Shown here one piece after another: positions 16,683 through 52,594 of a DNA stretch of 64,000 bases. The stretch comes from Eledone cirrhosa (Eukaryota). Location of the stretch: positions 344,224,001 to 344,288,000 of the forward strand of contig OZ024743.1 of the NCBI GenBank assembly GCA_964016885.1, read 5' to 3'. Each line of letters begins with the position of its first letter. Position 1 is the first letter of the stretch. Below the pieces are notes generated by a model. That model was not told where the DNA came from. It was given only the letters and a program-made list of their open reading frames with translations, and did not search any database. A program made the position numbers and the translations under genes.

Positions 16683-16900
16683 CGATGGACACATGTGCTG
16701 AGCTCGCTCGGTAAGTTTTTGTTTAAATTCATACGGAAATTGTAAACTGTAAACTTTCATTTTTGTATCATTTTGTAGAGGGACTGCCAGGTCAAATTTT
16801 GATCTGGTCGGTCTCTCAAAATATTCTGCGCCTTTGGGCGAAATAGTATTGTGAACATTTTATCTTTCGAAAAACTTCGAAAAACCCTATTTTGATAAAA

Positions 16901-17080
16901 ATGGCTGAAGCATCTTCACCATCAATCAAAGAAGGAAAGGGGAAGTCATACTCACAGCTTCCCCCTGCCACTGTCACAGCAGCAGATGCCAAAGGCAGAG
17001 GTCAGAGAGAGGAAGAATTGTCTTCACCTGTTGACCGACCACTAGATGTAGCCACAACTACACAAGAATTTGAAAACAAC

Positions 17081-17111
<31 letters not shown>

Positions 17112-18755
17112 GCAACAATAAAGACAACAAAAACAACAACAACACAAACGTCACAAGTATCCACACACGAAACGAGAAAGACAACAACAACAACAAAGAT
17201 GAAAACAACTCAAACGACGAGAAACAAAACAATACTAATATCCAAAACGAAAACAAAATATCTTTTGCACAAACGGCTAAATTATCAGTCGCTTATGTGC
17301 TGGAAGATATTTCAAAAGCAAAAGAAATGCTGGAAAAAGCCAAGAAATATGTGTCTTTTGGCGAAAACGGATCGTTTTCTATACATTCACCTCCGGAGCT
17401 AAAAAGACAGACGGAATTACGAACTGTCGTATTCCGAACAATTTTAAATAAAACAAAGAAACCAGCGCAACCATCTCAAGCGGAAACTCAGTTAGTCTTG
17501 AAAGACGCGATGAGAGACATCACTTTCATACAAAAGGATAAACTCTATGGGAGTTTATCCATATTGATGAAAGACGAATTGGCGGCAAAAAAATACTCTG
17601 TGTCGCCAATTCGGTCCACACACTACACCTTCTTCCCCACCTACATGGGTAAAAAAACCCAGAGGATATGGATAACCACCATCACCCCAAACATAAACTA
17701 CTGGTGGTTACTAACCGGTTTCCTCAATTTAGACGAGGACAACCTCATCTCAATAGGGAAGGCATCCGGCGACGCGTTCAGTGGAACGAGCCTCGAAGTT
17801 CTGACCCAAATAAGGCCAGAACGCATCGCCCAAATCCCTGAGCGCGTCATGCTGGATGACCGTACCCACCTCAACATTATTGTGGAGGGTAGGCGTCCCT
17901 CCTGTTACCTCTGTTGCAATAGAGGTCACCTGAGGGCTGCCTGTCCCCAGCTCACACAGAAAAAAACACTGCTACCAACACCAACACCACCCCAACTACA
18001 ACAACAAAAACAACCACAACAACAACAAAAACCAACAACCCCACCACCACCACCACAACAACAACAACAACAAACACGTGAAAAAATAACACAGAATACT
18101 GTCCCACCCAATCCCTCCCCACCCAAAACAAATACAAAAACACGCACACCGCAAACACTACCAGAAAACATACCCCTCCCACCCAACAAGGAAGACGAAC
18201 CTCTTTCGTCGCAAGACGAAAAAGATCCCTTCCAACAAGTAAAAAGAAAGAAGAGGAGACGCACCACAGACACACATGTTAACTTTAACCCCCCCCCAAG
18301 AGAACACAAACTACACACAAACCACCCCTCCCTGTCACACAACACTAACTGCTACACAAAAAAAGACCTTACAATACACATACATGAACACAGACAACAA
18401 AGAATTACGGAAAACAATTTCAGCAAACCCTTCGGTCCAAACTGAAGGGCCAAACTTTATAACTGCTGTGGGACTACCTCATTTGAAAATGATAAAAGTC
18501 CCAATGCACTTGTACAAAACACTGAAAATAAATTTCACGGAGGACGTGGGCCCCCCCTGCGCCAAACCAATCAACCGCGTCCTCCTAAAAAATTTCACCC
18601 CCCCACCCCACCCAGACACCCACTCAACGACAAACACCCCAACCCCACAACACACCGATGCCCCTTCACTTCCACAAACCACCACCCCACCCAACAACCC
18701 ATCCCCAACCAGCATGGAAATTGAGCGGCCCGTTTCCCGGGACGCAGAGAGGTAA
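16901..18755 (+). pseudogene. ORF1 (gag-like nucleic-acid-binding protein), variant A, frameshifted near the C-run at ~18288-18297
   Basis: MAEASSP start, poly-Asn, CYLCCNRGHLRAAC (CX2CX4HX4C) and KRKKRRR. The C-terminal part homologous to copy 2 continues in another frame (ORF track 18276-18755). Confidence 0.88.
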
Positions 18756-18779
18756 GTGCCTTTTCTCTTTACCACCAAC

Positions 18780-21700
18780 ATGGCTGTGCTAAGAGTAGGG
18801 TGTCTAAATGCGCGTGGCCTGGGCTCGTCTTGGAAGCAAGCAATGCTTCTAAATGACCTCAGGTCACAATCTATAAATGTGATGGTTATCTGCGAGGCCC
18901 GGATCAGCAGCATGCGACAGCTAGCCCCCACCTTTGACGACTTTGAGATGCACGCATCTCTCTGTCAGCCCGGAGGTGGGGGTGGGGTTGTCGTTCTGCT
19001 GCAAAAACATATGGGCCTTGCAACACAGATAGTTCACTTGGACCCAGGGGGTCGACTGGTGGTGCTGGACCTTGGCAGTGGTGAAGGTAGAGCCCTTAGG
19101 CTGATAGCCGCATATGCCCCTTTTGGGACAGAGCGGCCCGACTTTTTCCAGCGTCTGGAGTCTTTTCTAGGGACGTCTCGTTCCCTGCTTTTAGTGGGGG
19201 ATTGGAATGGTATCCTGGATGCACGTTGGGACTATGCAGGGGCATGTCCCGATAGAGAGGGGTGCAACAGCCTCAAGGGGTTACTCGGCCGATTTGACCT
19301 GGCCGATAGATTTCGACTAGATTTTCCGACGGTGCCAACCTGGTCTTGGTCAAATCGCAGCGGATCATCTAGATCGTACCTAGATAGATTTTTAGTTAGA
19401 AATAAGGACAGGGACTTTTTAAGTTGTCCAGAAATGCTCATGGTTGGCTATTCAGACCACAAGTTGGTGACCTGCATGGTCAACCTTGATAGAACGCATA
19501 GACAGGGCCCCGGTTACTGGAAGCTCAACTTGTCCTTGCCGGCAAGTAGAGCCTACAGGAATCGGATTAGTACGTTAGTTAAGGAACGGTTGACTGGAGC
19601 GATCGTCAACAGCAGGTGGTGGGTATCTCTAAAGAGAGAGATTAGAGTAGTCTCGATTGAATTTAGTAAGGTTCTAGCTGCGGATAGGAATAGGAAGGAA
19701 AGGGAGCTAATAGATAGAGTAGAAGAGGCAATTAGAAGCGGCGACGTGGCCAGAGTGCTAGCGTCGAGAACGGCTTTGAGCCAGTTTTTCGACGCGAAGC
19801 ACGAAGGCTGCGTTGTCCGAAGTAAAATACGTGCTCTAGGGAACGAGGGGGCCAAAGCTGTTAGCTGGACCCGCGTGACAGAGGCCAACAGTGGAACTAA
19901 ATCCACCATCCGGTCGTTGCGAGACCTGGATGGACGGGCGATTCTTGAGCCTAAGCAGATGTGTGAGGCCTTTCAAAGGCACTTTGCCCGACTGTTCGGG
20001 AGGGGCGGGGAGCCGGTTGGAAACGTGGACTTCGGTCCATACCTCGACGGCCTGCCGCGCCTCTCGGACAGGGAGGCGAAGTCTTGCGAGGAGCCGATTT
20101 CGGCCGCTGAGATAGAGGACGTGCTGGGCCAATGCGGCAAACGCAAATCCCCGGGTCTCGATGGTCTTCCTTACGAATTATATCTAGCTATGCCGGACTT
20201 GTTCCCCGATCTCCTCGAGGCGGTCTACTGCAACTGGCAACAGAACGGGAGAATTCCCTGTACTGTGACCAAGGGCGTAGTCACGCTAGTGAGGAAGGAC
20301 GAGAACAAGGGGGACGAAATAAGTAACTTCAGGCCCATAACTCTGCTAAATACAGAGTTACAGATTTTGGCCAAGGTGCTAGCAAAGAGGTTGGCGCTTG
20401 TCGTGGGCAACCTGGTGGGAGATGCGCAGACATGCGCTATCCCGTCCAGGTCCATCCATGACAACCTCCACCTCATGCGATACATCATAGAGAGGGTTGG
20501 GAACGAACCCGGCTTTGGTGGGGCTCTGATCAACTTGGATCAATCTAAGGCGTTCGATAGGGTCGACCATGGTTACCTGAATGCGGTGCTAGCGGCGGCA
20601 GGCTTCGGACCCGTTTTCAGGGGCTGGATCACTGCTATGCACAGCAGCCGCATCTGCTCTAGGGTCAAGGTGAACGGCTACCTCTCGGAGCCGTTCAAAA
20701 TCGCGCGGTCCATCCGACAAGGGTGCCCTCTCTCCTCCCTTCTGTATGTGTTGACTCTCGAGCCACTACTGCGGAAGTTGGAGTTGTTGCAGGGCATCCC
20801 TTTGGAACCGGAAAGCGGTGTCGGCCTACGCCGATGATGTGACAGTAATGGTGTCGACGGCCTCCGAAATCGAGGCGGTCGGCACCTTACGGGAGGAGTA
20901 CGAAAAGTTCACAGGGGCTAAGCTGAACCGGGACAAGTCGATCGGTTTGCAACTCGGCACGTGGAGGGGCAGACCGATGCCCTCCGATGGCGTCGTCGGA
21001 CGCTGGACGGAGGGCCCGGTGAAGTTGCTCGGGGTCTGGTTCGGACCGGACCTCCAGGTGGAGAAAAACTGGGCGGAGGTTACGAACAGGGTGTTTGCAC
21101 TGACCCAGAAGTGGGCCAGTTGCAAACTATCCCTGAAAGGTCGGGCGGAGGTGGCGAACACTTATATAGCGTCCGTCATCTACTACCGCCTGACCGTAGT
21201 GCCCTGCCCAAGGGAAACCCTCACCAAGATGGAGCGCGCGCTCTTCCAATTCCTTTGGAAGGGGCGGGCTCCTATGGTGAGGAGATCCATCTGCTGTCAA
21301 CACCCTTCGAAAGGAGGGCTGGGGATGCCGTGGCTAATGATGCGTAAACACGCATTAAGGCTACGGCACCTCTACGTATTCCTCACCGGACAACCGGTGT
21401 GGGCCTCGTTTGTGAGACGAACCTTTCCCAGACTCGTCTCACTCACCGAGCTGCAATCCTGGGTCAAGCAAAGACCGAGAAAACTGGGCGCCTGGCACAC
21501 TGAGTGTGCCCAGGCGCTCACCGCCCTCTGGCAGGCGGATCCGGTTATCAGTGGAGACTCCACCGCAACATTCTATAGAGGGCTGGTACGCAGCAGGTGC
21601 GACGACGCCCTCGGAGAAGCCCTAGACATGGAGGAGGACGAACTGGCCAGCCTGTTCGGTAGGACATTCAGCCCGGGACCTATGGACAACTTCCAGAAGT

Positions 21701-22209
21701 CCCTGGCCTGGCAGTGCTACCGAGGGGCTTTACCCGTTCGAGAAAGGCTCTACAGACACGGGCGCCCGGGTAGGGACCCCGCCAAAAAGATCTGTCCCAG
21801 ATGCGTGTGCGACGAGGAAACCGTTGCACACGCATTGGTACACTGCTCGGGCGTAGCCGATCTGTGGGGCTATGTCGAACAACTGCTGTCAAGGGTGGGA
21901 CCGATCCGGTTGACCACCGAGTCTATTGTAATGATCAAGCCGCCTCCCCCCTTCAAAGATGAAGCAGAGGCGGTGTTTCTGTGCGTAATAGCCATGGCGA
22001 AAGAGGTTGTATGGTGGACGCGTCTGAAAGGACTGAGGTCAGGCACCTTTCTCTCTGGCCAACAACTGGTCCGTTTCTTCCGATATCATTTCGGAAGAAG
22101 GATCAGGATGGAGAGAGAGGTGCTGCACCCCAGTCGTTTTTATGAAAGGTGGGTGAAAGTGGCGAGAATGGCCCGTGTGAATGGGCCTTCTTTTTACATA
22201 AGCCTGTAG
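18780..22209 (+). pseudogene. ORF2 (AP endonuclease, reverse transcriptase, C-terminal zinc finger) broken by an 8-bp deletion at ~20810
   Basis: Motifs LNARGL, GDWN, YLDRF, SDH, KSPGLDGL, FRPITLLN, DQSKAFDRV, RQGCPLS, YADD and CPRC...HALVHC. It lacks GATTGCGG relative to copy 3. Confidence 0.93.
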
Positions 22210-22706
22210 GTGGAAAAGAGGAAGGAACGAGGGAGCACCCCCTCTCTGTGCTCCTGAGGAAAAGGGTTGCACACTTTTTTCGGGGGTGTGTGCGACCCCC
22301 CAAGGCGCCTCCTCTCTATTGAGGATTTTGTTAAAAATTTTATTTTTGTTATATCTTATTTTATTTTTATATTTTGTTATTGCCTCCTCCTTATTGAGGA
22401 CGCCTTTTTTGTGTAAACTCCCCCCTTTGTACTTGTCCCACTTTTGATGCCCTAGTGGCAAATAAAAGAAACTTATCTATCTATCTATCTCTGGGATGGA
22501 CACACGCGTATAACTTGCTGAGTAAGTTCTGTTTAAATTTCTATAGAAATTCTTGTCTGATAACTTTAATTTTTGTACCATTTTGTAGAGGGACTGCCAG
22601 GTCAAACTTTGATCTAGTCAGTCTCTCAAAATATTCTACGCCTTTAGGCGAAATAGTTAAACAAAAAAAAAAAGTTTTTTCTTGTTGAAAAGTCAATATT
22701 TTTTAA

Positions 22707-24503
22707 ATGGCCGAAGCTTCTTCACCAAAATTCGAAGGAGGAAAGGGGAAGATGAACTTACAGCTTCCCCCTGCCACTGTCACAGTAGCAGAGGTCAAGA
22801 AGAAAGGTCAGCCAGAGGAAGAATTCTCTCCACCTGTTAACCGACAACTTGACGTTGCCATGGCAACAACCCAAAGAATCAGCAGCAACAGCAACAACAA
22901 CAACAATGCGACGGACGAAAACAACACCAATAACAATAACAATAACAACAACAACAACAACAAGACCAATAACGGTGACAACAACAACAATGATAACAAC
23001 AACACCACTAACGACAACAACAACACAAACAAACAAAATTTCTCCTTCGCCGAGACGACAAGGAAAACCCTCGACTATCTGCCAGTAGATATAACAAAAG
23101 CGAAGGAGCTACTGGCGGATGCGAAAAAATATATAGTGTACGGGGAAAATGGTTCATTCACAATCCATTCCCCCCCGGAACTAAAAAGCCAGAGACTCCT
23201 AAACACGGTCATGTTTAGGACAATCTCGAACAAAAGTAAAAAACCAGCTCAACCATCACAGAGCGAGATAGAGCTGGTTTTAAAAGACGTCATGAAGGAC
23301 ATCACCTTCATTCAGAAGGATAGACTCTACGGGAGTCTATCCATTCTCATGAAGGACAGGGACACAGCAGTGAAACTGTCCATCAAACCAATCACATCCA
23401 CCGCATACACCTTCTACCCTACGTACATGGGTAGAAGAACACAAAAAATAAAAATCCACACCATCCTGCCGATTATAGACATATGGTGGGTTTTGACAGG
23501 TTTTCTGGACCTGGAGGATGACATGCTGGTGTCCATGGGAAAGGCATCGGGTGACGCGTTCAGTGGAACGAGCCTCGAACTTGTAGTTCAAATGAGGCCC
23601 GAAAGGATCGCCCAGATCCCTGAACGCGTCATACTGGATGATCTAACCTTCATCAACATTACCGTTGAGGGTAGACGGCCCTCGTGTTACCTCTGCGGAA
23701 CCAGAGGTCACCTGAGGGCTGTCTGTCCCCAACTTAATAAGAAAACCCCAATCCTGCCTACACCACCAACAACTGCACAACCAACACAATCACCACAACT
23801 ACCACTACAAAAACAACCACCACAGCTCAAACCAAAACAAAACAATGTCCAACCCATCCCCTCCACTCAAAAAACAAAAACAATTTCCAAAACACCCGTA
23901 CCGCAAACACAACCCGAAAATATACCCCTCCCTTCCAACGCGGAAGATGACCCTAGTTCGTCGTCAGACGAGGAGGAGCACTTCCACACAATCAAAAGAA
24001 AAAAAAGAAAACACACCTCAGACACACAAATGAAAAAAAACCCTCCCCAAAACATAACACTGACACCAACACAAAAGAGCTCACAACAGCAAACAAAAAA
24101 CACCACACAAAAACAAAAACATGCATACACATACATAAATACAAGAAACAAAAAACTGTTAAACATTGTGTACAACAACAATCTAATAAAAACACAAGGG
24201 CCTAACTTCACCCAGGCAGGGGATTTCCCCCACCTCAAAATGATTAAGGCTCCACAGGACACCTATAAAACTTTAAAAAACAATTTTAAAGAGGACGTGG
24301 GTCCCCCCTGCGTCGGGCCCATTAACCGCGTCCTCCTAAAAAACTATCCCACCCCCTCCCCAAACACCCACACAACTCCAAGCTCCCCAACCACACAACA
24401 CACTGATGCCCCCACACTTCCACAAACCACCACCCCACCCAACAACCCATCCCCCACCCTAATGGAAATTGTGCAGCCCGATACCCGGGACGCAGAGAGG
24501 TAA
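22707..24503 (+). CDS. ORF1 protein, variant B (598 aa), CCHC zinc knuckle
   Basis: Intact ATG..TAA frame with CYLCGTRGHLRAVC, a poly-Asn N-terminal tract and a KRKKRK basic patch. Confidence 0.9.
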   Translation: MAEASSPKFEGGKGKMNLQLPPATVTVAEVKKKGQPEEEFSPPVNRQLDVAMATTQRISSNSNNNNNATDENNTNNNNNNNNNNNKTNNGDNNNNDNNNTTNDNNNTNKQNFSFAETTRKTLDYLPVDITKAKELLADAKKYIVYGENGSFTIHSPPELKSQRLLNTVMFRTISNKSKKPAQPSQSEIELVLKDVMKDITFIQKDRLYGSLSILMKDRDTAVKLSIKPITSTAYTFYPTYMGRRTQKIKIHTILPIIDIWWVLTGFLDLEDDMLVSMGKASGDAFSGTSLELVVQMRPERIAQIPERVILDDLTFINITVEGRRPSCYLCGTRGHLRAVCPQLNKKTPILPTPPTTAQPTQSPQLPLQKQPPQLKPKQNNVQPIPSTQKTKTISKTPVPQTQPENIPLPSNAEDDPSSSSDEEEHFHTIKRKKRKHTSDTQMKKNPPQNITLTPTQKSSQQQTKNTTQKQKHAYTYINTRNKKLLNIVYNNNLIKTQGPNFTQAGDFPHLKMIKAPQDTYKTLKNNFKEDVGPPCVGPINRVLLKNYPTPSPNTHTTPSSPTTQHTDAPTLPQTTTPPNNPSPTLMEIVQPDTRDAER

Positions 24504-24527
24504 GTGCCTTTTCTCTTCACCACCAAC

Positions 24528-27500
24528 ATGGCTATGCTAAGAGTAGGCTGTTTAAATGCGCGTGGCCTGGGCTCAACTTGGAAGCAAGCAATGCTTCTAA
24601 ATGACCTCAGGTCACAACGTATAGATGTGATGGTTATTTGCGAGGCCCGGATCAGCAACGTGCGACAGCTGGCCCCCACCTTTGATGACTTTGAGATGCA
24701 CGCATCTCTCTGTCAGCCCGGAGGTGGGGGTGGAGTTGTCGTTCTGCTGCAAAAACATCTGGGTCTCGCAACACAGATGGTACATTTGGACCCGGAGGGT
24801 CGACTAGTGGTTCTGGACCTTGGCAGTGGTAAAGGCGGAGCGTTTAGGTTGGTAGCCGCCTACGGCCCTTTCGGGTCAATGCGGCCGGACTTCTTCCATC
24901 GTCTGGAGACTTTTCTGGGGACGTCCCGCTCCTTGCTATTAGTGGGGGACTGGAATGGTATCCTAGATGCACGCTGGGACTACGTAGGGGCCTGCCCCGA
25001 TAGAGAGGGGTGTAATAGCCTCAAAGGGTTAATCGGTCGATTTGACCTGGCCGATAGATATCGACTAGATTTTCCGACTGCGCCAACCTGGACTTGGGCA
25101 AATCGTAGCGGATCATCTAGGTCGTACCTAGATAGGTTCTTAGTTAGAATTAAGGATAAGGACTTTTTAAGTTGTCCAAAAATGTGCATGGTTGGCTATT
25201 CAGACCACAAATTAGTGACCTGCATGGTCAACCTTGACAGAACTCATAGACAGGGCCCCGGTTACTGGAAGCTCAACTTGTCCTTGCCGGCAAGTAGAGC
25301 CTACAGGAATCGGATTAGTACGTTAGTTAAGGAACGGTTGACTGGAGCGATCGTCAACAGCAGGTGGTGGGTATCTCTAAAGAGAGAGATTAGAGTAGTC
25401 TCGATAGAATTTAGTAAGGTTCTAGCTGCGGATAGGAATAGGAAGGAAAGGGAGCTAATAGATAGAGTAGAAGAGGCAATTAGAAGCGGCGACGTGGCCA
25501 GAGTGCTAGCGTCGAGAACGGCTTTGAGCCAGTTTTTCGACGCGAAGCACGAAGGCTGCGTTGTCCGAAGTAAAATACGTGCTCTAGGGAACGAGGGGAC
25601 CAAAGCTGTTAGCTGGGCCCGCGTGACAGAGGCCAACAGTGGAACTAAATCCACCATCCGGTCTTTGCGAGACCTGGATGGACGGGCGATTCTTGAGCCT
25701 AAGCAGATGTGTGAGGCCTTTCAAAGGCACTTTGCCCGACTGTTCGGGAGGGGCGGGGAGCCGGTTGGGAACGTGGACTTCGGTCCATACCTCGACGGCC
25801 TGCCGCGCCTCTCGGACAGGGAGGCGAAGTCCTGCGAGGAGCCGATTTCGGCCGCTGAGATAGAGGACGTGCTGAGCCAATGCGGCAAACGCAAATCCCC
25901 GGGTCTCGATGGTCTTCCTTACGAATTATATCTAGCTATGCCGGACTTGTTCCCCGATCTCCTCGAGGCGGTCTACTGCAACTGGCAACAGAACGGGAGA
26001 ATTCCCTGTACTGTGACCAAGGGCGTAGTCACGCTAGTGAGGAAGGACGAGAACAAGGGGGACGAAATAAGTAACTTCAGGCCCATAACTCTGCTAAATA
26101 CAGAGTTACAGATTTTGGCCAAGGTGCTAGCAAAGAGGTTGGCGCTTGTCGTGGGCAACCTGGTGGGAGATGCGCAGACATGCGCTATCCCGTCCAGGTC
26201 CATCCATGACAACCTCCACCTCATGCGATACATCATAGAGAGGGTTGGGAACGAACCCGGCTTTGGTGGGGCTCTGATCAACTTGGATCAATCTAAGGCG
26301 TTCGATAGGGTCGACCATGGTTACCTGAATGCGGTGCTAGCGGCGGCAGGCTTCGGACCCGTTTTCAGGGGCTGGATCACTGCTATGCACAGCAGCCGCA
26401 TCTGCTCTAGGGTCAAGGTGAACGGCTACCTCTCGGAGCCGTTCAAAATCGCGCGGTCCATCCGACAAGGGTGCCCTCTCTCCTCCCTTCTGTATGTGTT
26501 GACTCTCGAGCCACTACTGCGGAAGTTGGAGTTGTTGCAGGGCATCCCTTTGGAACCGGAAAGCGGTGTCGGCCTACGCCGATGATGTGACAGTAATGGT
26601 GTCGACGGCCTCCGAAATCGAGGCGGTCGGCACCTTACGGGAGGAGTACGAAAAGTTCACAGGGGCTAAGCTGAACCGGGACAAGTCGATCGGTTTGCAA
26701 CTCGGCACGTGGAGGGGCAGACCGATGCCCTCCGATGGCGTCGTCGGACGCTGGACGGAGGGCCCGGTGAAGTTGCTCGGGGTCTGGTTCGGACCGGACC
26801 TCCAGGTGGAGAAAAACTGGGCGGAGGTTACGAACAGGGTGTTTGCACTGACCCAGAAGTGGGCCAGTTGCAAACTATCCCTGAAAGGTCGGGCGGAGGT
26901 GGCGAACACTTATATAGCGTCCGTCATCTACTACCGCCTGACCGTAGTGCCCTGCCCAAGGGAAACCCTCACCAAGATGGAGCGCGCGCTCTTCCAATTC
27001 CTTTGGAAGGGGCGGGCTCCTATGGTGAGGAGATCCATCTGCTGTCAACACCCTTCGAAAGGAGGGCTGGGGATGCCGTGGCTAATGATGCGTAAACACG
27101 CATTAAGGCTACGGCACCTCTACGTATTCCTCACCGGACAACCGGTGTGGGCCTCGTTTGTGAGACGAACCTTTCCCAGACTCGTCTCACTCACCGAGCT
27201 GCAATCCTGGGTCAAGCAAAGACCGAGAAAACTGGGCGCCTGGCACACTGAGTGTGCCCAGGCGCTCACCGCCCTCTGGCAGGCGGATCCGGTTATCAGT
27301 GGAGACTCCACCGCAACATTCTATAGAGGGCTGGTACGCAGCAGGTGCGACGACGCCCTCGGAGAAGCCCTAGACATGGAGGAGGACGAACTGGCCAGCC
27401 TGTTCGGTAGGACATTCAGCCCGGGACCTATGGACAACTTCCAGAAGTCCCTGGCCTGGCAGTGCTACCGAGGGGCTTTACCCGTTCGAGAAAGGCTCTA

Positions 27501-27957
27501 CAGACACGGGCGCCCGGGTAGGGACCCCGCCAAAAAGATCTGTCCCAGATGCGTGTGCGACGAGGAAACCGTTGCACACGCATTGGTACACTGCTCGGGC
27601 GTAGCCGATCTGTGGGGCTATGTCGAACAACTGCTGTCAAGGGTGGGACCGATCCGGTTGACCACCGAGTCTATTGTAATGATCAAGCCGCCTCCCCCCT
27701 TCAAAGATGAAGCAGAGGCGGTGTTTCTGTGCGTAATAGCCATGGCGAAAGAGGTTGTATGGTGGACGCGTCTGAAAGGACTGAGGTCAGGCACCTTTCT
27801 CTCTGGCCAACAACTGGTCCGTTTCTTCCGATATCATTTCGGAAGAAGGATCAGGATGGAGAGAGAGGTGCTGCACCCCAGTCGTTTTTATGAAAGGTGG
27901 GTGAAAGTGGCGAGAATGGCCCGTGTGAATGGGCCTTCTTTTTACATAAGCCTGTAG
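24528..27957 (+). pseudogene. ORF2 APE-RT with an 8-bp deletion frameshift just before YADD
   Basis: Same motifs as copy 3. GAACCGG^AAAGCGG at ~26560. Confidence 0.93.
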
Positions 27958-28454
27958 GTGGAAAAGAGGAAGGAACGAGGGAGCACCCCCTCTCTGTGCT
28001 CCTGAGGAAAAGGGTTGCACACTTTTTTCGGGGGTGTGTGCGACCCCCCAAGGCGCCTCCTCTCTATTGAGGATTTTGTTAAAAATTTTATTTTTGTTAT
28101 ATCTTATTTTATTTTTATATTTTGTTATTGCCTCCTCCTTATTGAGGACGCCTTTTTTGTGTAAACTCCCCCCTTTGTACTTGTCCCACTTTTGATGCCC
28201 TAGTGGCAAATAAAAGAAACTTATCTATCTATCTATCTCTGGGATGGACACACGCGTATAACTTGCTGAGTAAGTTCTGTTTAAATTTCTATAGAAATTC
28301 TTGTCTGATAACTTTAATTTTTGTACCATTTTGTAGAGGGACTGCCAGGTCAAACTTTGATCTAGTCAGTCTCTCAAAATATTCTACGCCTTTAGGCGAA
28401 ATAGTTAAACAAAAAAAAAAAGTTTTTTCTTGTTGAAAAGTCAATATTTTTTAA

Positions 28455-30251
28455 ATGGCCGAAGCTTCTTCACCAAAATTCGAAGGAGGAAAGGGGAAGA
28501 TGAACTTACAGCTTCCCCCTGCCACTGTCACAGTAGCAGAGGTCAAGAAGAAAGGTCAGCCAGAGGAAGAATTCTCTCCACCTGTTAACCGACAACTTGA
28601 CGTTGCCATGGCAACAACCCAAAGAATCAGCAGCAACAGCAACAACAACAACAATGCGACGGACGAAAACAACACCAATAACAATAACAATAACAACAAC
28701 AACAACAACAAGACCAATAACGGTGACAACAACAACAATGATAACAACAACACCACTAACGACAACAACAACACAAACAAACAAAATTTCTCCTTCGCCG
28801 AGACGACAAGGAAAACCCTCGACTATCTGCCAGTAGATATAACAAAAGCGAAGGAGCTACTGGCGGATGCGAAAAAATATATAGTGTACGGGGAAAATGG
28901 TTCATTCACAATCCATTCCCCCCCGGAACTAAAAAGCCAGAGACTCCTAAACACGGTCATGTTTAGGACAATCTCGAACAAAAGTAAAAAACCAGCTCAA
29001 CCATCACAGAGCGAGATAGAGCTGGTTTTAAAAGACGTCATGAAGGACATCACCTTCATTCAGAAGGATAGACTCTACGGGAGTCTATCCATTCTCATGA
29101 AGGACAGGGACACAGCAGTGAAACTGTCCATCAAACCAATCACATCCACCGCATACACCTTCTACCCTACGTACATGGGTAGAAGAACACAAAAAATAAA
29201 AATCCACACCATCCTGCCGATTATAGACATATGGTGGGTTTTGACAGGTTTTCTGGACCTGGAGGATGACATGCTGGTGTCCATGGGAAAGGCATCGGGT
29301 GACGCGTTCAGTGGAACGAGCCTCGAACTTGTAGTTCAAATGAGGCCCGAAAGGATCGCCCAGATCCCTGAACGCGTCATACTGGATGATCTAACCTTCA
29401 TCAACATTACCGTTGAGGGTAGACGGCCCTCGTGTTACCTCTGCGGAACCAGAGGTCACCTGAGGGCTGTCTGTCCCCAACTTAATAAGAAAACCCCAAT
29501 CCTGCCTACACCACCAACAACTGCACAACCAACACAATCACCACAACTACCACTACAAAAACAACCACCACAGCTCAAACCAAAACAAAACAATGTCCAA
29601 CCCATCCCCTCCACTCAAAAAACAAAAACAATTTCCAAAACACCCGTACCGCAAACACAACCCGAAAATATACCCCTCCCTTCCAACGCGGAAGATGACC
29701 CTAGTTCGTCGTCAGACGAGGAGGAGCACTTCCACACAATCAAAAGAAAAAAAAGAAAACACACCTCAGACACACAAATGAAAAAAAACCCTCCCCAAAA
29801 CATAACACTGACACCAACACAAAAGAGCTCACAACAGCAAACAAAAAACACCACACAAAAACAAAAACATGCATACACATACATAAATACAAGAAACAAA
29901 AAACTGTTAAACATTGTGTACAACAACAATCTAATAAAAACACAAGGGCCTAACTTCACCCAGGCAGGGGATTTCCCCCACCTCAAAATGATTAAGGCTC
30001 CACAGGACACCTATAAAACTTTAAAAAACAATTTTAAAGAGGACGTGGGTCCCCCCTGCGTCGGGCCCATTAACCGCGTCCTCCTAAAAAACTATCCCAC
30101 CCCCTCCCCAAACACCCACACAACTCCAAGCTCCCCAACCACACAACACACTGATGCCCCCACACTTCCACAAACCACCACCCCACCCAACAACCCATCC
30201 CCCACCCTAATGGAAATTGTGCAGCCCGATACCCGGGACGCAGAGAGGTAA
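28455..30251 (+). CDS. ORF1 protein, variant B (598 aa)
   Basis: Translation is identical to copy 2 ORF1, including the CCHC knuckle. Confidence 0.92.
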   Translation: MAEASSPKFEGGKGKMNLQLPPATVTVAEVKKKGQPEEEFSPPVNRQLDVAMATTQRISSNSNNNNNATDENNTNNNNNNNNNNNKTNNGDNNNNDNNNTTNDNNNTNKQNFSFAETTRKTLDYLPVDITKAKELLADAKKYIVYGENGSFTIHSPPELKSQRLLNTVMFRTISNKSKKPAQPSQSEIELVLKDVMKDITFIQKDRLYGSLSILMKDRDTAVKLSIKPITSTAYTFYPTYMGRRTQKIKIHTILPIIDIWWVLTGFLDLEDDMLVSMGKASGDAFSGTSLELVVQMRPERIAQIPERVILDDLTFINITVEGRRPSCYLCGTRGHLRAVCPQLNKKTPILPTPPTTAQPTQSPQLPLQKQPPQLKPKQNNVQPIPSTQKTKTISKTPVPQTQPENIPLPSNAEDDPSSSSDEEEHFHTIKRKKRKHTSDTQMKKNPPQNITLTPTQKSSQQQTKNTTQKQKHAYTYINTRNKKLLNIVYNNNLIKTQGPNFTQAGDFPHLKMIKAPQDTYKTLKNNFKEDVGPPCVGPINRVLLKNYPTPSPNTHTTPSSPTTQHTDAPTLPQTTTPPNNPSPTLMEIVQPDTRDAER

Positions 30252-30275
30252 GTGCCTTTTCTCTTCACCACCAAC

Positions 30276-33200
30276 ATGGCTATGCTAAGAGTAGGCTGTT
30301 TAAATGCGCGTGGCCTGGGCTCAACTTGGAAGCAAGCAATGCTTCTAAATGACCTCAGGTCACAACGTATAGATGTGATGGTTATTTGCGAGGCCCGGAT
30401 CAGCAACGTGCGACAGCTGGCCCCCACCTTTGATGACTTTGAGATGCACGCATCTCTCTGTCAGCCCGGAGGTGGGGGTGGAGTTGTCGTTCTGCTGCAA
30501 AAACATCTGGGTCTCGCAACACAGATGGTACATTTGGACCCGGAGGGTCGACTAGTGGTTCTGGACCTTGGCAGTGGTAAAGGCGGAGCGTTTAGGTTGG
30601 TAGCCGCCTACGGCCCTTTCGGGTCAATGCGGCCGGACTTCTTCCATCGTCTGGAGACTTTTCTGGGGACGTCCCGCTCCTTGCTATTAGTGGGGGACTG
30701 GAATGGTATCCTAGATACACGCTGGGACTACGTAGGGGCCTGCCCCGATAGAGAGGGGTGTAATAGCCTCAAAGGGTTAATCGGTCGATTTGACCTGGCC
30801 GATAGATATCGACTAGATTTTCCGACTGCGCCAACCTGGACTTGGGCAAATCGTAGCGGATCATCTAGGTCGTACCTAGATAGGTTCTTAGTTAGAATTA
30901 AGGATAAGGACTTTTTAAGTTGTCCAAAAATGTGCATGGTTGGCTATTCAGACCACAAATTAGTGACCTGCATGGTCAACCTTGACAGAACTCATAGACA
31001 GGGCCCCGGTTACTGGAAGCTCAACTTGTCCTTGCCGGCAAGTAGAGCCTACAGGAATCGGATTAGTACGTTAGTTAAGGAACGGTTGACTGGAGCGATC
31101 GTCAACAGCAGGTGGTGGGTATCTCTAAAGAGAGAGATTAGAGTAGTCTCGATAGAATTTAGTAAGGTTCTAGCTGCGGATAGGAATAGGAAGGAAAGGG
31201 AGCTAATAGATAGAGTAGAAGAGGCAATTAGAAGCGGCGACGTGGCCAGAGTGCTAGCGTCGAGAACGGCTTTGAGCCAGTTTTTCGACGCGAAGCACGA
31301 AGGCTGCGTTGTCCGAAGTAAAATACGTGCTCTAGGGAACGAGGGGACCAAAGCTGTTAGCTGGGCCCGCGTGACAGAGGCCAACAGTGGAACTAAATCC
31401 ACCATCCGGTCTTTGCGAGACCTGGATGGACGGGCGATTCTTGAGCCTAAGCAGATGTGTGAGGCCTTTCAAAGGCACTTTGCCCGACTGTTCGGGAGGG
31501 GCGGGGAGCCGGTTGGGAACGTGGACTTCGGTCCATACCTCGACGGCCTGCCGCGCCTCTCGGACAGGGAGGCGAAGTCCTGCGAGGAGCCGATTTCGGC
31601 CGCTGAGATAGAGGACGTGCTGAGCCAATGCGGCAAACGCAAATCCCCGGGTCTCGATGGTCTTCCTTACGAATTATATCTAGCTATGCCGGACTTGTTC
31701 CCCGATCTCCTCGAGGCGGTCTACTGCAACTGGCAACAGAACGGGAGAATTCCCTGTACTGTGACCAAGGGCGTAGTCACGCTAGTGAGGAAGGACGAGA
31801 ACAAGGGGGACGAAATAAGTAACTTCAGGCCCATAACACTGCTAAATACAGAGTTACAGATTTTGGCCAAGGTGCTAGCAAAGAGGTTGGCGCTTGTCGT
31901 GGGCAACCTGGTGGGAGATGCGCAGACATGCGCTATCCCGTCCAGGTCCATCCATGACAACCTCCACCTCATGCGATACATCATAGAGAGGGTTGGGAAC
32001 GAACCCGGCTTTGGTGGGGCTCTGATCAACTTGGATCAATCTAAGGCGTTCGATAGGGTCGACCATGGTTACCTGGATGCGGTGCTAGCGGCGGCAGGCT
32101 TCGGACCCGTTTTCAGGGGCTGGATCACTGCTATGCACAGCAGCCGCATCTGCTCTAGGGTCAAGGTGAACGGCTACCTCTCGGAGCCGTTCCAAATCGC
32201 GCGGTCCATCCGACAAGGGTGCCCTCTCTCCTCCCTTCTGTATGTGTTGACTCTCGAGCCACTACTGCGGAAGTTGGAGTTGTTGCAGGGCATCCCCTTG
32301 GAACCGGGATTGCGGAAAGCGGTGTCGGCCTACGCCGATGACGTGACAGTAATGGTGTCGACGGCCTCCGAAATCGAGGCGGTCGGCACCTTACTGGAGG
32401 AGTACGAAAGGTTCACAGGGGCTAAGCTGAACCGGGACAAGTCGATCGGTTTGCAACTCGGCACGTGGAGGGGCAGACCGATGCCCTCCGATAGCGTCGT
32501 CGGACGCTGGACGGAGGGCCCGGTGAAGTTGCTCGGGGTCTGGTTCGGACCGGACCTCCAGGTGGAGAAAAACTGGGCGGAGGTTACGAACAGGGTGTTT
32601 GCACTGACCCAGAAGTGGGCCAGTTGCAAACTATCCCTGAAAGGTCGGGCGGAAGTGGCGAACACCTACATAGCGTCCGTCATCTACTACCGCCTGACCG
32701 TAGTGCCCTGCCCAAGGGAAACCCTCACCAAGATGGAGCGCGCGCTCTTCCAATTCCTTTGGAAGAGGCGGGCTCCTATGGTGAGGAGATCCATCTGCTG
32801 TCAACACCCTTCGAAAGGAGGGCTGGGGATGCCGTGGCTAATGATGCGTAAACACGCATTAAGGCTACGGCACCTCTACGTATTCCTCACCGGACAACCG
32901 GTGTGGGCCTCGTTTGTGAGACGAACCTTTCCCAGACTCGTCTCACTCACCGAGCTGCAATCCTGGGTCAAGCAAAGACCGAGAAAACTGGGCGCCTGGC
33001 ACACTGAGTGTGCCCAGGCGCTCACCGCCCTCTGGCAGGCGGATCCGGTTATCAGTGGAGACTCCACCGCAACATTCTATAGAGGGCTGGTACGCAGCAG
33101 GTGCGACGACGCCCTCGGAGAAGCCCTAGACATGGAGGAGGACGAACTGGCCGGCCTGTTCGGTAGGACATTCAGCCCAGGACCTATGGACAACTTCCAG

Positions 33201-33713
33201 AAGTCCCTGGCCTGGCAGTGCTACCGAGGGGCTTTACCCGTTCGAGAAAGGCTCTACAGACACGGGCGCCCGGGTAGGGACCCCGCCAAAAAGATCTGTC
33301 CCAGATGCGTGTGCGACGAGGAAACCGTTGCACACGCATTGGTACACTGCTCGGGCGTAGCCGATCTGTGGGGCTATGTCGAACAACTGCTGTCAAGGGT
33401 GGGACCGATCCGGTTGACCACCGAGTCTATTGTAATGATCAAGCCGCCTCCCCCCTTCAAAGATGAAGCAGAGGCGGTGTTTCTGTGCGTAATAGCCATG
33501 GCGAAAGAGGTTGTATGGTGGACGCGTCTGAAAGGACTGAGGTCAGGCACCTTTCTCTCTGGCCAACAACTGGTCCGTTTCTTCCGATATCATTTCGGAA
33601 GAAGGATCAGGATGGAGAGAGAGGTGCTGCACCCCAGCCGTTTCTATGAAAGATGGGTGAAAGTGGCGAGAATGGCCCGTGTGAATGGGCCTTCACTCTA
33701 CATCAGACTATAG
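30276..33713 (+). CDS. ORF2: apurinic-like endonuclease, reverse transcriptase and CCHC (1145 aa from the first ATG)
   Basis: Uninterrupted frame with the ATG in ACCAACATGG context. All APE and RT motifs are present, including YADD and CPRC...H...HC. Confidence 0.95.
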   Translation: MAMLRVGCLNARGLGSTWKQAMLLNDLRSQRIDVMVICEARISNVRQLAPTFDDFEMHASLCQPGGGGGVVVLLQKHLGLATQMVHLDPEGRLVVLDLGSGKGGAFRLVAAYGPFGSMRPDFFHRLETFLGTSRSLLLVGDWNGILDTRWDYVGACPDREGCNSLKGLIGRFDLADRYRLDFPTAPTWTWANRSGSSRSYLDRFLVRIKDKDFLSCPKMCMVGYSDHKLVTCMVNLDRTHRQGPGYWKLNLSLPASRAYRNRISTLVKERLTGAIVNSRWWVSLKREIRVVSIEFSKVLAADRNRKERELIDRVEEAIRSGDVARVLASRTALSQFFDAKHEGCVVRSKIRALGNEGTKAVSWARVTEANSGTKSTIRSLRDLDGRAILEPKQMCEAFQRHFARLFGRGGEPVGNVDFGPYLDGLPRLSDREAKSCEEPISAAEIEDVLSQCGKRKSPGLDGLPYELYLAMPDLFPDLLEAVYCNWQQNGRIPCTVTKGVVTLVRKDENKGDEISNFRPITLLNTELQILAKVLAKRLALVVGNLVGDAQTCAIPSRSIHDNLHLMRYIIERVGNEPGFGGALINLDQSKAFDRVDHGYLDAVLAAAGFGPVFRGWITAMHSSRICSRVKVNGYLSEPFQIARSIRQGCPLSSLLYVLTLEPLLRKLELLQGIPLEPGLRKAVSAYADDVTVMVSTASEIEAVGTLLEEYERFTGAKLNRDKSIGLQLGTWRGRPMPSDSVVGRWTEGPVKLLGVWFGPDLQVEKNWAEVTNRVFALTQKWASCKLSLKGRAEVANTYIASVIYYRLTVVPCPRETLTKMERALFQFLWKRRAPMVRRSICCQHPSKGGLGMPWLMMRKHALRLRHLYVFLTGQPVWASFVRRTFPRLVSLTELQSWVKQRPRKLGAWHTECAQALTALWQADPVISGDSTATFYRGLVRSRCDDALGEALDMEEDELAGLFGRTFSPGPMDNFQKSLAWQCYRGALPVRERLYRHGRPGRDPAKKICPRCVCDEETVAHALVHCSGVADLWGYVEQLLSRVGPIRLTTESIVMIKPPPPFKDEAEAVFLCVIAMAKEVVWWTRLKGLRSGTFLSGQQLVRFFRYHFGRRIRMEREVLHPSRFYERWVKVARMARVNGPSLYIRL

Positions 33714-34069
33714 GTGAGGAAGATGAAAGACCAAGGGAGCACCCCTTCTCTGTGCTCCTGAGGAGAAGGGTTGCACACTTTTTTCGGGGGTGTGTGCGAC
33801 CCCCCAAGGCGCCTCCTCTCTATTGAGGATTTTGTTAAAAATTTTATTTTTTGTTATATCTTATTTTATTTTTATATTTTGTTATTGCCTCCTCCTTATT
33901 GAGGACGCCTTTTTGTGTAAACTCCCCCCTTTGTACTTGTCCTACTTTTGATGCCCTAGTGGCAAATAAAAGAAACATATCTATCTATCTATCTATCTAT
34001 CTAACTATCTCTCACTCTATATATATGTATGTATATATATGTATATATATATATGTATATATAAATATG

Positions 34070-41023: not shown

Positions 41024-41084
41024 CTTCTATCATCATCATCATCATCAACAACCTCTTTATTTTCTTCCTCTTCTAGCTTATCCC

Positions 41085-44000
41085 CCCCTACTTCCTTCTC
41101 TTCCCACCATATTATACTCCCCCTACTTCCTTCTCTTCCCACCATACTATGCTCCCCCTGCTTCCTTCTCTTCCCACCATACTATGCTCCCCCTACTTCC
41201 TTCTCTTCCCACCATACTATGCTCCCCCCTACTCCCTTCTCTTCCCACCATATTATACTCCCCCTGCTTCCTTCTCTTCCCACCATATTATGCTCCCCCT
41301 ACTTCCTTCTCTTCCCACCATATTATACTCCCCCTACTTCCTTCTCTTCCCACCATACTATGCTCCCCCTGCTTCCTTCTCTTCCCACCATACTATGCTC
41401 CCCCTACTTCCTTCTCTTCCCACCATACTATGCTCCCCCCTACTCCCTTCTCTTCCCACCATATTATACTCCCCCTGCTTCCTTCTCTTCCCACCATATT
41501 ATACTCCCCCTACTTCCTTCTCTTCCCACCATATTATACTCCCCCTACTTCCTTCTCTTCCCACCATACTATGCTCCCCCTACTTCCTTCTCTTCCCACC
41601 ATATTATACTCCCCCTACTTCCTTCTCTTCCCACCATACTATGCTCCCCCTACTTCCTTCTCTTCCCACCATACTATGCTCCCCCTGCTTCCTTCTCTTC
41701 CCACCATACTATGCTCCCCCTACTTCCTTCTCTTCCCACCATACTATGCTCCCCCTGCTTCCTTCTCTTCCCACCATATTATACTCCCCCTACTTCCTTC
41801 TCTTCCCACCATACTATGCTCCCCCTACTTCCTTCTCTTCCCACCATATTATACTCCCCCTACTTCCTTCTCTTCCCACCATACTATGCTCCCCCTGCTT
41901 CCTTCTCTTCCCACCATACTATGCTCCCCCGTACTTCCTTCTCTTCCCACCATATTATACTCCCCCTGCTTCCTTCTCTTCCCACCATATTATGCTCCCC
42001 CTACTTTCTTCTCTTCCCACCATACTATGCTCCCCCTACTTCCTTCTCTTCCCACCATATTATACTCCCCCTACTTCCTTCTCTTCCCACCATACTATGC
42101 TCCCCCTACTTCCTTCTCTTCCCACCATATTATACTCCCCCTACTTCCTTCTCTTCCCACCATACTATGCTCCCCCTGCTTCCTTCTCTTCCCACCATAC
42201 TATGCTCCCCCTACTTCCTTCTCTTCCCACCATATTATACTCCCCCTACTTCCTTCTCTTCCCACCATACTATGCTCCCCCTGCTTCCTTCTCTTCCCAC
42301 CATACTATGCTCCCCCTGCTTCCTTCTCTTCCCACCATACTATGCTCCCCCTACTTCCTTCTCTTCCCACCATATTATACTCCCCCTACTTCCTTCTCTT
42401 CCCACCATACTATGCTCCCCCTGCTTCCTTCTCTTCCCACCATACTATGCTCCCCCTGCTTCCTTCTCTTCCCACCATACTATGCTTCCTTCTCTTCCCA
42501 CCATACTATGCTCCCCCTACTTCCTTCTCTTCCCACCATATTATACTCCCCCTACTTCCTTCTCTTCCCACCATACTATGCTCCCCCTGCTTCCTTCTCT
42601 TCCCACCATACTATGCTCCCCCTACTTCCTTCTCTTCCCACCATATTATACTCCCCCTGCTTCCTTCTCTTCCCACCATACTATGCTCCCCCTACTTCCT
42701 TCTCTTCCCACCATATTATACTCCCCCTACTTCCTTCTCTTCCCACCATACTATGCTCCCCCTACTTACTTCTCTTCCCACCATACTATGCTCTCCCTGC
42801 TTCCTTCTCTTCCCACCATACTATGCTCCCCCTGCTTCCTTCTCTTCCCACCATACTATGCTCCCCCTACTTCCTTCTCTTCCCACCATACTATACTCCC
42901 CCTACTTCCTTCTCTTCCCACCATACTATGCTCCCCCTGCTTCCTTCTCTTCCCACCATACTATGCTCCCCCTACTTCCTTCTCTTCCCACCATATTATA
43001 CTCCCCCTACTTCCTTCTCTTCCCACCATACTATGCTCGCCCTGCTTCCTTCTCTTCCCACCATACTATGCTCCCCCTGCTTCCTTCTCTTCCCACCATA
43101 CTATGCTCCCCCTACTTCCTTCTCTTCCCACCATATTATACTCCCCCTACTTCCTTCTCTTCCCACCATACTATGCTCATCCTGCTTCCTTCTCTTCCCA
43201 CCATACTATGCTCCCCCTGCTTCCTTCTCTTCCCACCATACTATGCTCCCCCTGCTTCCTTCTCTTCCCACCATACTATGCTCCCCCTGCTTCCTTCTCT
43301 TCCCACCATATTATACTCCCCCTACTTCCTTCTCTTCCCACCATACTATGCTCCCCCTGCTTCCTCTCTTCCCACCATACTATGCTCCCCCTACTTCCTT
43401 CTCTTCCCACCATACTATGCTCCCCCCTACTCCCTTCTCTTCCCACCATATTATACTCCCCCTACTTCCTTCTCTTCCCACCATACTATGCTCCCCCTGC
43501 TTCCTTCTCTTCCCACCATACTATGCTCCATCTGCTTCCTTCTCTTCCCACCATACTATGCTCCCCCTGCTTCCTTCTCTTCCCACCATACTATGCTCCC
43601 CCTACTTCCTTCTCTTCCCACCATATTATACTCCCCCTACTTCCTTCTCTTCCCACCATACTATGCTCCCCCTGCTTCCTTCTCTTCCCACCATACTATG
43701 CTCCCCCTGCTTCCTTCTCTTCCCACCATATTATGCTCCCCCTACTTCCTTCTCTTCCCACCATATTATGCTCCCCCTACTTCCTTCTCTTCCCACCATA
43801 CTATGCTCCCCCTACTTCCTTCTCTTCCCACCATATTATGCTCCCCCTACTTCCTTCTCTTCCCACCATACTATGCTCCCCCTGCTTCCTTCTCTTCCCA
43901 CCATACTATGCTCCCCCTACTTCCTTCTCTTCCCACCATACTATGCTCCCCCCTACTTCCTTCTCTTCCCACCATATTATACTCCCCCTGCTTCCTTCTC

Positions 44001-44762
44001 TTCCCACCATATTATGCTCCCCCTACTTCCTTCTCTTCCCACCATACTATGCTCCCCCTACTTCCTTCTCTTCCCACCATATTATACTCCCCCTACTTCC
44101 TTCTCTTCCCACCATACTATGCTCCCCCTACTTCCTTCTCTTCCCACCATATTATACTCCCCCTACTTCCTTCTCTTCCCACCATACTATGCTCCCGCTG
44201 CTTCCTTCTCTTCCCACCATACTATGCTCCCCCTACTTCCTTCTCTTCCCACCATACTATGCTCCCCCCTACTTCCTTCTCTTCCCACCACATTATACTC
44301 CCCCTGCTTCCTTCTCTTCCCACCATATTATGCTCCCCCTACTTCCTTCTCTACCCACCATACTATGCTCCCCCTATTTCCTTCTCTTCCCACCATATTA
44401 TACTCCCCCTACTTCCTTCTCTTCCCACCATACTATGCTCCCCCTACTTCCTTCTCTTCCCACCATATTATACTCCCCCTACTTCCTTCTCTTCCCACCA
44501 TACTATGCTCCCCCTGCTTCCTTCTCTTCCCACCATACTATGCTCCCCCTACTTCCTTCTCTTCCCACCATACTATGCTCCCCCCCTACTTCCTTCTCTT
44601 CCCACCATATTATACTCCCCCTGCTTCCTTCTCTTCCCACCATATTATGCTCCCCCTACTTCCTTCTCTTCCCACCATACTATGCTCCCCCTACTTCCTT
44701 CTCTTCCCACCATAATATACTCCCCCTACTTCCTTCTCTTCCCACCATACTATGCCCCCCCC
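41085..44762. repeat. 35-bp minisatellite, about 105 units
   Basis: Unit CTCCCCCT(A/G)CTTCCTTCTCTTCCCACCATA(CTATG/TTATA). Confidence 0.97.
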
Positions 44763-44877
44763 CCTTCCCGCAAACCACTAAAGATGAAACGTCTATAATA
44801 TTTCCAAAGCAAGTTAATTAGAAGTCGTGCAAATATATGTTCATGCGTGAGTAACGTTTCAAATTTCGCCGATCTGC

Positions 44878-52141: not shown

Positions 52142-52552
52142 AGGTTAAAAGGGCTGAGGGCAGAGACATTTCTCACCGGCCAACAACTGATTCTTTTTTT
52201 TCAAATATCACTTTAGAAGAAGAATCAGGATGGAGAGAGAGGTGCTGTACCCCAGCAAGTTTTATGAAAGGTGGGTGAAAGTGGCGAGAATGGCCCGAGT
52301 GGTTGGGCCTTCTCTCTATATCAGCCTGTAGGTTGAGGAAAAAGAGGAACAGAGGAAAGCGGGTACTCACTCTTCGTACTCCTGGAGATGAGGGTTGCAC
52401 ATTTTTTCGGGAGTATGTCTCCCCCTATTGGGGAAAATCGATTGTGTTTTAAATTGCATTTGTGATAGTATTTTACACGTTTTTTATTGTATGTAAACTT
52501 CCCCCTTTGTATTTGTCCCCTTCTTTTGTGCCCTTGTGGCTAATAAAGAAAC
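52142..52552 (+). mobile_element. 5'-truncated diverged copy of the Tx1-like element
   Basis: Encodes RLKGLRAETFLTGQQL.../YHFRRRIRMEREVLYPSKFYERWVKVARMARVVGPSLYISL*. The 3' UTR ends AATAAAGAAAC, and TATC repeats lie on both sides. Confidence 0.93.
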
Positions 52553-52561
52553 ATATCTATC

Positions 52562-52594
<33 letters not shown>

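Follow-up and report, generated by a model that had tools for sequence, protein, structure and literature searches.

Introduction

LINEs require ORF1p in large excess over ORF2p, and this excess is thought to come from inefficient translation of ORF2 on bicistronic RNA. Splicing of L1 has been described as harmful to the element. HAL1, a genomic LINE derivative, has ORF1, lacks ORF2 and keeps the 3' UTR.

Gag-only spliced RNA is already known from LTR elements. By the account in PMC5580714, Drosophila copia has an intron of about 3 kb that spans the enzymatic ORF and uses its unspliced RNA as the genome, and plant Ty1/copia elements keep a conserved U1 site. Like copia and the Ty1/copia element EVADE, the LINE described here conserves a U1-type donor close to where its structural ORF ends, and we propose a similar intron and a similar role for the unspliced RNA. 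By contrast, copia and EVADE are LTR elements that have a single gag-pol frame and whose spliced RNA is proven (PMC5580714), whereas ours is a two-ORF non-LTR element in which splicing is proposed and which lacks the early poly(A) site of EVADE.

In LINEs, incidental splicing has been described for human L1 (SpIREs, PMC5860796; SpORF2, PMC2896524) and for the antisense RNA of TART (PMC1636488). As these accounts present human L1, most RNA is unspliced, and splicing starts in the 5' UTR, removes the UTR or ORF1 and keeps ORF2. The spliced forms are treated as dead ends and leave genomic copies (PMC5860796), which make up 1.8% of full-length human L1 and retain ORF2 (section 17 of the same paper). 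Our element shares with human L1 its place in the L1 clade and the conservation of a 5'-proximal donor. Unlike in human L1, a conserved donor stands at the end of ORF1, its use would take out ORF2, and exact patterns detected no processed copy in families A, B, C and F. Drosophila telomeres carry genomic ORF1-only elements that lack ORF2 and keep the 3' UTR (PMC13534243). In contrast to HAL1 and these elements, the searches made here found no genomic copy joined at this donor. Among titles and abstract openings in the literature, with subscription papers and Repbase notes lying outside the search, no conserved ORF1-end donor or ORF2-removing intron was reported in a LINE.

Results

The element and its relatives

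The window, by which we mean the whole 64,000-nucleotide stretch of Eledone cirrhosa DNA that was analysed, contains a head-to-tail array of three copies of a 5.7-kb LINE on the + strand (copy 1, 16684..22490; copy 2, 22492..28238; copy 3, 28240..34010), and the finding sits in the third. Copy 3 is full-length and intact, belongs to family A and ends in a (TATC)n tail. Its ORF1 (28455..30251, +; 598 aa, ending in ...DAER and the stop) matches a CCHC zinc knuckle weakly (zf-CCHC, E 0.051, which is below cut-off). A pyrimidine-rich spacer of 24 nt (30252..30275, +) leads from the ORF1 stop to the ATG of ORF2 (30276..33713, +; 1145 aa), which is the candidate intron. The 3' UTR (33714..33977, +) is purine-rich in its first 25 nt and has AATAAA at 33965. 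ORF2 encodes an APE endonuclease, a RT and a C-terminal zinc domain, for which Pfam returned Exo_endo_phos, RVT_1 and, below cut-off, zf-RVT. The best solved-structure match of ORF2 was human L1 ORF2p (E 7e-48; R2 gave E 8e-20). With these domains following an ORF1, the element is a non-LTR retrotransposon of the L1 clade.

Copy 1 differs in its ORF1 (a variant at 87% overall), has its two donors at 16711 and 18752, and carries a broken ORF2. Copy 2 has a donor GT at 24500, an AAG-type 3' end and an 8-nt deletion that breaks ORF2. The three copies are mutually 87–99% identical and hence are not independent. A fourth piece near 52 kb (52148..52579, +) is a 5'-truncated 3' fragment of another, sister subfamily (D/E) at 71% identity; it lacks ORF1, and its candidate CAG ends at 52324. 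Copies 1 and 2 are mosaic in that they differ at the start of ORF2 and are identical over the last 2082 nt. At 41084–44768 the window contains 105 copies of a 35-bp tandem satellite, beyond which long arrays of tri- and nonanucleotides extend to 51300.

The ORF1-end junction of family A has 1487 exact matches in the 3.0-Gb genome, and 40 of the 40 listed matches to a 401-nt junction are 100% identical, which together indicate that the family is young. Among 20 fetched family-A copies, the 3' end was of the copy-3 type in 16 and of the copy-1/2 type in two, and none was found in the remaining two. TATC repeats surround all 19 copies that have a 5' end, a target preference of the kind used to characterize the Tx1 group, namely a single sequence type in >20% of flanks (PMC4494074). 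The Tx1-group elements Kibi and Koshi also have an APE-RT ORF2 and insert into microsatellites, with targets different from those seen here and no mention of splicing that we came across (PMC4494074). The Tx1 label for our element would rest on this resemblance, the tree having contained only unnamed sequences and no named Tx1 element.

At least five young families coexist, with (TATC)n as the target of A, F and G versus (ATT)n for B, C and C2 (L104, L103 and L390 compared with the window); the target of family H is also (TATC)n. At least four young families have hundreds of near-identical copies each. A long head-to-tail array of family B (G000:C1:423365588-423418120) has ten junctions at a spacing of about 5.8 kb, and such elements insert into one another's microsatellite tails. 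Two loci, L406 and L407, are mosaics of a C2 body and a C 3' end.

A donor motif at the end of ORF1

The ORF1 stop of copy 3 is covered by a 5' splice-site consensus, GAG/GTAAGT (30245..30253, +; GT at 30248). An earlier reading of the window, made from the sequence only, had described GAGAG/GTAAGT over the ORF1 stop with GT at 18752, 24500 and 30248, and we find it at all three positions, with the TAA within it ending ORF1. By chance an element should contain AGGTRAGT 0.17 times; it has one, at the ORF1 end. Given the stop, the chance of AGG before it and GT after it is about 0.001. On the sense strand of A3, A1 and D, GTRAGT occurs solely in the 5' UTR and ORF1-end motifs.

To compare subfamilies, we gathered sisters through 3'-end DNA, distant proteins and neighbours in fetched loci, never through the motif, and built a tree with FastTree. 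G/GTRRGT was present at the ORF1 end in 11 of the 11 subfamilies with the junction visible, including one family known from two decayed copies. With the donor cut at the slash, the junctions are GAG/GTAAGT in A and F, GAG/GTGAGT in older A and in D, AAG/GTGAGT in E1, GAG/GTRAGT in E2, AAG/GTAGGT in G (22 of 23 matched loci), AAG/GTAAGT in B and C, and ACG/GTAAGT in C2. Family H is represented by two old copies, each one mismatch off the motif, and individual old copies carry point changes in it. When one hand-picked copy from each of 10 subfamilies was compared, A-2, G+1, T+2, G+5 and T+6 were identical in all 10, and positions +8 to +12 agreed in at most seven. Identity to family A over ORF2 is 83–85% for F and G and 68–70% for B, C and C2; among the 11 subfamilies, ORF2 identity goes down to 67%. 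For the older D, E and H, the comparison was made on DNA. A protein query, P0008, recovered family B again, and more distant relatives (P0004–P0007) showed 41–43% identity.

A, C, C2, D, E and G have the donor in phase 2, B has it in phase 1 and F in phase 0. The stop inside it may be TAA, TGA or TAG, each of which fits the donor consensus. In family B (338 copies) the stop comes after the donor. In family F (360 copies) the donor lies 36 nt, or 12 codons, upstream of the ORF1 stop, and the motif is present in 25 of 25 loci; ORF1 is open across it in four of 10 fetched loci and broken earlier in the others. Both are young families that have the donor without a stop inside it. Because the donor occurs in three phases and, in B and F, apart from the stop, stop-codon constraint does not explain it. 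Family F is only 14% diverged from A, so its retention of the donor is by itself weak evidence.

The ORF1 proteins of A, B and C are 30–33% identical, and their four-fold sites are saturated (26–37% agreement pairwise and 1 of 32 three-way); the three-way agreement at four-fold sites of ORF2 is 122 of 333. AG/GTAAGT is identical in A, B and C. At the ORF2 silent rate, this would occur with a probability of about 0.0003 for 8/8 positions, or about 0.007 for the 5/5 positions outside the stop. The earlier reading had left it to sister families to show whether the donor is conserved beyond coding constraint, and across 11 subfamilies and three phases it clearly is, so that the donor is kept beyond coding need. 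We also chose by eye 15 distant L1/Tx1 metagenome elements in which both ORFs could be seen, out of 28 shown from 80 loci; just one of the 15 had GGTRAG near the ORF1 stop. The ORF1-end donor is thus, on these sequences, a trait of this lineage and not of the L1 clade.

In the family-F locus L460:2586-6090 (G000:C3), ATA overlaps the TAG stop of ORF1 in a way that resembles an AUGA stop-start. The 1167-codon ORF2 frame is intact in L460 and L465, and its first Met is 55 codons in. This points to reinitiation at a non-AUG codon, to a frameshift or to dependence on other families for ORF2.

Candidate acceptors at the end of ORF2

Two candidate acceptors lie at the end of ORF2 in copy 3. The first, proposed in the earlier reading, is a pyrimidine tract followed by CAG (33690..33706, +), which ranks 6 of 264 AGs. 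The ORF2-end strings quoted there match those in copies 1, 2 and 3 and in the 52-kb piece, and removal of 30248–33706 (3459 nt) would indeed yield ORF1 plus one residue. The second is the TAG stop of ORF2 followed by G (33711..33714, +); it ranks 44 of 264 here, and a join to it would leave ORF1 unaltered. In copies 1 and 2 the acceptor is a weak AAG and the candidate intron is 3451 nt owing to the 8-nt deletion. The intron length had also been noted as a multiple of 3. This is true of copy 3, and we rejected it as evidence: any such length results when ORF1 and ORF2 are in one frame, as they are in family A, and the 3451-nt cases, which are not multiples of 3, give the same join outcome.

AGs from -16 to +10 of the ORF2 stop were ranked with a simple, home-made and untrained score. 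In eight of 10 elements scored, C and C2 being the exceptions, an AG lying no more than 7 nt from the ORF2 stop was in the top 9 of about 260 (ranks: A3, 6; A2, 9; B, 9; F, 1; G, 3; E2, 4; two D copies, 4 and 4). A, D, E and H have the AG first proposed; B, C, C2, F and G lack it. In B, F and G the best AG is within the ORF2 stop codon itself. In C and C2 the ORF2 stop is TAA, the best nearby AGs rank 34 and 38 and the join meets no stop before the poly(A) signal, and these two families, both young, have no convincing acceptor.

A join made in the element's own donor phase stops within 1–3 codons in seven of 10 cases, including phase-1 B and phase-0 F; the exceptions are C, C2 and a single decayed copy of D. 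For the old D copy L083 we took phase 2 from its sisters; L083 itself reads phase 1. In the other two phases, the join in B leaves 81 or more codons open. The 25 nt past the candidate acceptor are 76–92% purine. Shuffling of synonymous codons gave P from 0.02 to 0.84, with values below 0.05 in two of 10 cases (F and E2), and the pyrimidine tract is therefore largely explained by the encoded residues. Thus, conservation of the terminal pyrimidine tract and AG, which the earlier reading had proposed to check in related families, holds in part: a high-ranking AG recurs, whereas the exact AG is gone in five subfamilies and the shuffles are seldom beaten. Which of the nearby AGs to take was decided with the data already in view. 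The acceptor is weaker than the donor, and the link between acceptor and phase, spotted post hoc, is suggestive.

A second donor in the 5' UTR

The 5' UTR of copy 3 contains an intron-like segment of 67 nt (28267..28336, +) with GTAAGT at 28270, a T-rich tract and a TAG ending at 28336. By the same home-made score its AG ranks 1 of 372, and it is top-scoring in A3, A2, A1 and D (rank 1 of 359–372). The counterpart in copy 1 is 16711–16778. The segment was unspliced in 19 of 19 fetched copies having a 5' end, and searches with exact patterns found no processed copy lacking it. GTRAGT near the 5' end was also found in B, F, G and H, with weaker AG/GT forms in C and C2.

Three contigs of distant L1/Tx1 metagenome elements (L244:27, L246:18 and L263:23) have G/GTRAGT <30 nt from the contig start, and a 5'-proximal donor may be more widespread. 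In families D and B a strong AG lies just 5' of the ORF2 ATG (L083:3577-3625, L095 and L184), which is a possible acceptor for an ORF2-only RNA made from the 5' UTR donor.

Search for spliced copies

Retrocopies were searched for with exact patterns. No processed copy was found in family A among 1487 intact and 29 variant-junction copies, in B among 338 intact copies, in F among 360 intact copies, or in C. After the family-A donor, exons starting GTA+C/G/T or GTAA+A/C/T were covered only by a gap pattern from the donor exon to the 3' UTR, which had no match in the genome. Non-consensus continuations after this exon (22, 7 and 9) comprised 29 element copies and nine unrelated matches, and all 29 copies run on into the spacer. 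The retrocopies lacking exactly ORF2 that the earlier reading predicted were thus absent from the exact-pattern genome searches in A, B, C and F, and its idea of an ORF1-only non-autonomous element, for which no genomic copy with a precise junction was found, is unsupported. The absence of retrocopies says less about mRNA, because under the cis preference described in PMC5860796 (section 17) an RNA that lacks ORF2 should be a poor template.

We also looked at contigs from four sequencing runs whose kind is not on record. On copy 3, an X4 contig bridges 28238–28604, and an 86%-alike contig bridges 30134–30402 unspliced. Among the 15 joints listed, none led from 30247 to the end of ORF2 and none removed 28270–28336. 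The depth of X4 is uneven, which might mean RNA.

Discussion

The motif, its conservation in three phases and the unspliced genomic copies are observed directly; all later steps are what we infer from them. The ORF1-end motif is probably a U1 site. We propose, with a probability of roughly 0.4, that a fraction of transcripts is spliced from this donor to an AG at the ORF2 end to give an ORF1-only mRNA, much as in copia. The donor would be recognised by U1, and the AG used would be the upstream one in A, D, E and H, whereas B, F and G would use the TAG of the stop codon. ORF2 and the template for transposition would come from unspliced RNA, and RNA lacking ORF2 would go uncopied owing to a preference of ORF2p for the RNA that encodes it. 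Such splicing would serve to make more ORF1p than ORF2p, in the way that copia uses its gag-only RNA.

Several observations weigh against splicing. The 5' UTR segment looks the better intron, yet all genomic copies examined retain it, so donor-like motifs in this element may go unspliced. Also, exact patterns found no processed copies in A, B, C and F, and C, C2 and an old copy of D lack a fitting acceptor. Either both introns are excised together and the resulting ORF1-only RNA is never copied, or the donors bind U1 without much splicing; DNA alone cannot separate the two. A fuller form of the first option, which we put forward tentatively as a possible one, is a retrovirus-like LINE in which ORF1 would be an exon between two conserved donors and the RT gene a retained intron, the acceptor would shift between two AGs with donor phase, and fully spliced RNA would make ORF1p while only unspliced RNA would be copied.

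The second option, that the 5' UTR and ORF1-end donors bind U1 snRNP, are rarely or never spliced, and support transcription or shield full-length RNA from early termination, is the main rival, though somewhat unlikely in our estimate. It would account for the conservation of donors and not of acceptors, for the lack of processed copies of either candidate intron and for the donor-like motif that A, B, D, F and H carry 27–70 nt from their 5' ends. In EVADE, U1 suppresses early termination as reported in PMC5580714, and mutation of the rarely used 5' donor of human L1 lowered RNA about 5-fold, an effect ascribed in that account to a RUNX3 site (PMC5860796). However, the scored copies of A, C, D and E2 have no AATAAA or ATTAAA in ORF2 for U1 to suppress and B has one, where about one is expected, and the prompt stop of the join in B and F, each in its own shifted phase, is left unexplained.

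Partial splicing also has to be weighed against a role in translation. The motif lies 27–45 nt upstream of the ORF2 start in the subfamilies compared, the spacer is 71–77% pyrimidine in six of them, ATA replaces the ORF2 ATG and overlaps the ORF1 stop in 25 of 25 family-F loci, and SART1 uses reinitiation (PMC10275272). Motif and spacer could then form a termination–reinitiation signal for ORF2, or a site for another RNA- or DNA-binding factor, with a likeness to a donor only. We consider this improbable: the variation that is tolerated (A/G at +3 and +4, A/C at -2, position -3 free) tracks the U1 consensus, and the distances to the stop and to the start both vary. A hairpin presenting the donor appeared in several minimum-energy folds, but it was above shuffles in only one of eight, and seven folds of the 3' UTR, made in search of a hairpin, shared no structure.

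It is already disfavoured, and quite improbable, that an Arg codon and stop made GGTAAG by chance in an ancestor and the motif simply persisted. The FastTree tree gives all subfamilies a single ancestor, ORF1 ends Arg-stop in most of them and 14 of the 15 distant elements lack the motif; against this, the flanks of A, B and C are unalignable as DNA outside ORF2 save for short pieces, silent sites in ORF1 are saturated, and B and F retained the motif after it parted from the stop. Least credible is that the donor is spliced elsewhere, to an AG inside ORF2, to downstream host exons or across a mini-intron of 34–58 nt, shorter than usual animal introns, that fuses ORF1 to ORF2: the top-ranked AG in D lies 32 nt past the donor in frame with ORF2, as read from the sequence, and the third-ranked AG in B lies at 34 nt, but the B join is out of frame, A, C, E, G and H have no AG ahead of the ORF2 start, and fused copies, which should retrotranspose in cis, were not found in A or B.

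The donor has been kept through saturation of silent sites and through three phase shifts, which suggests that selection has favoured the use of U1 or the spliceosome in a non-LTR element.
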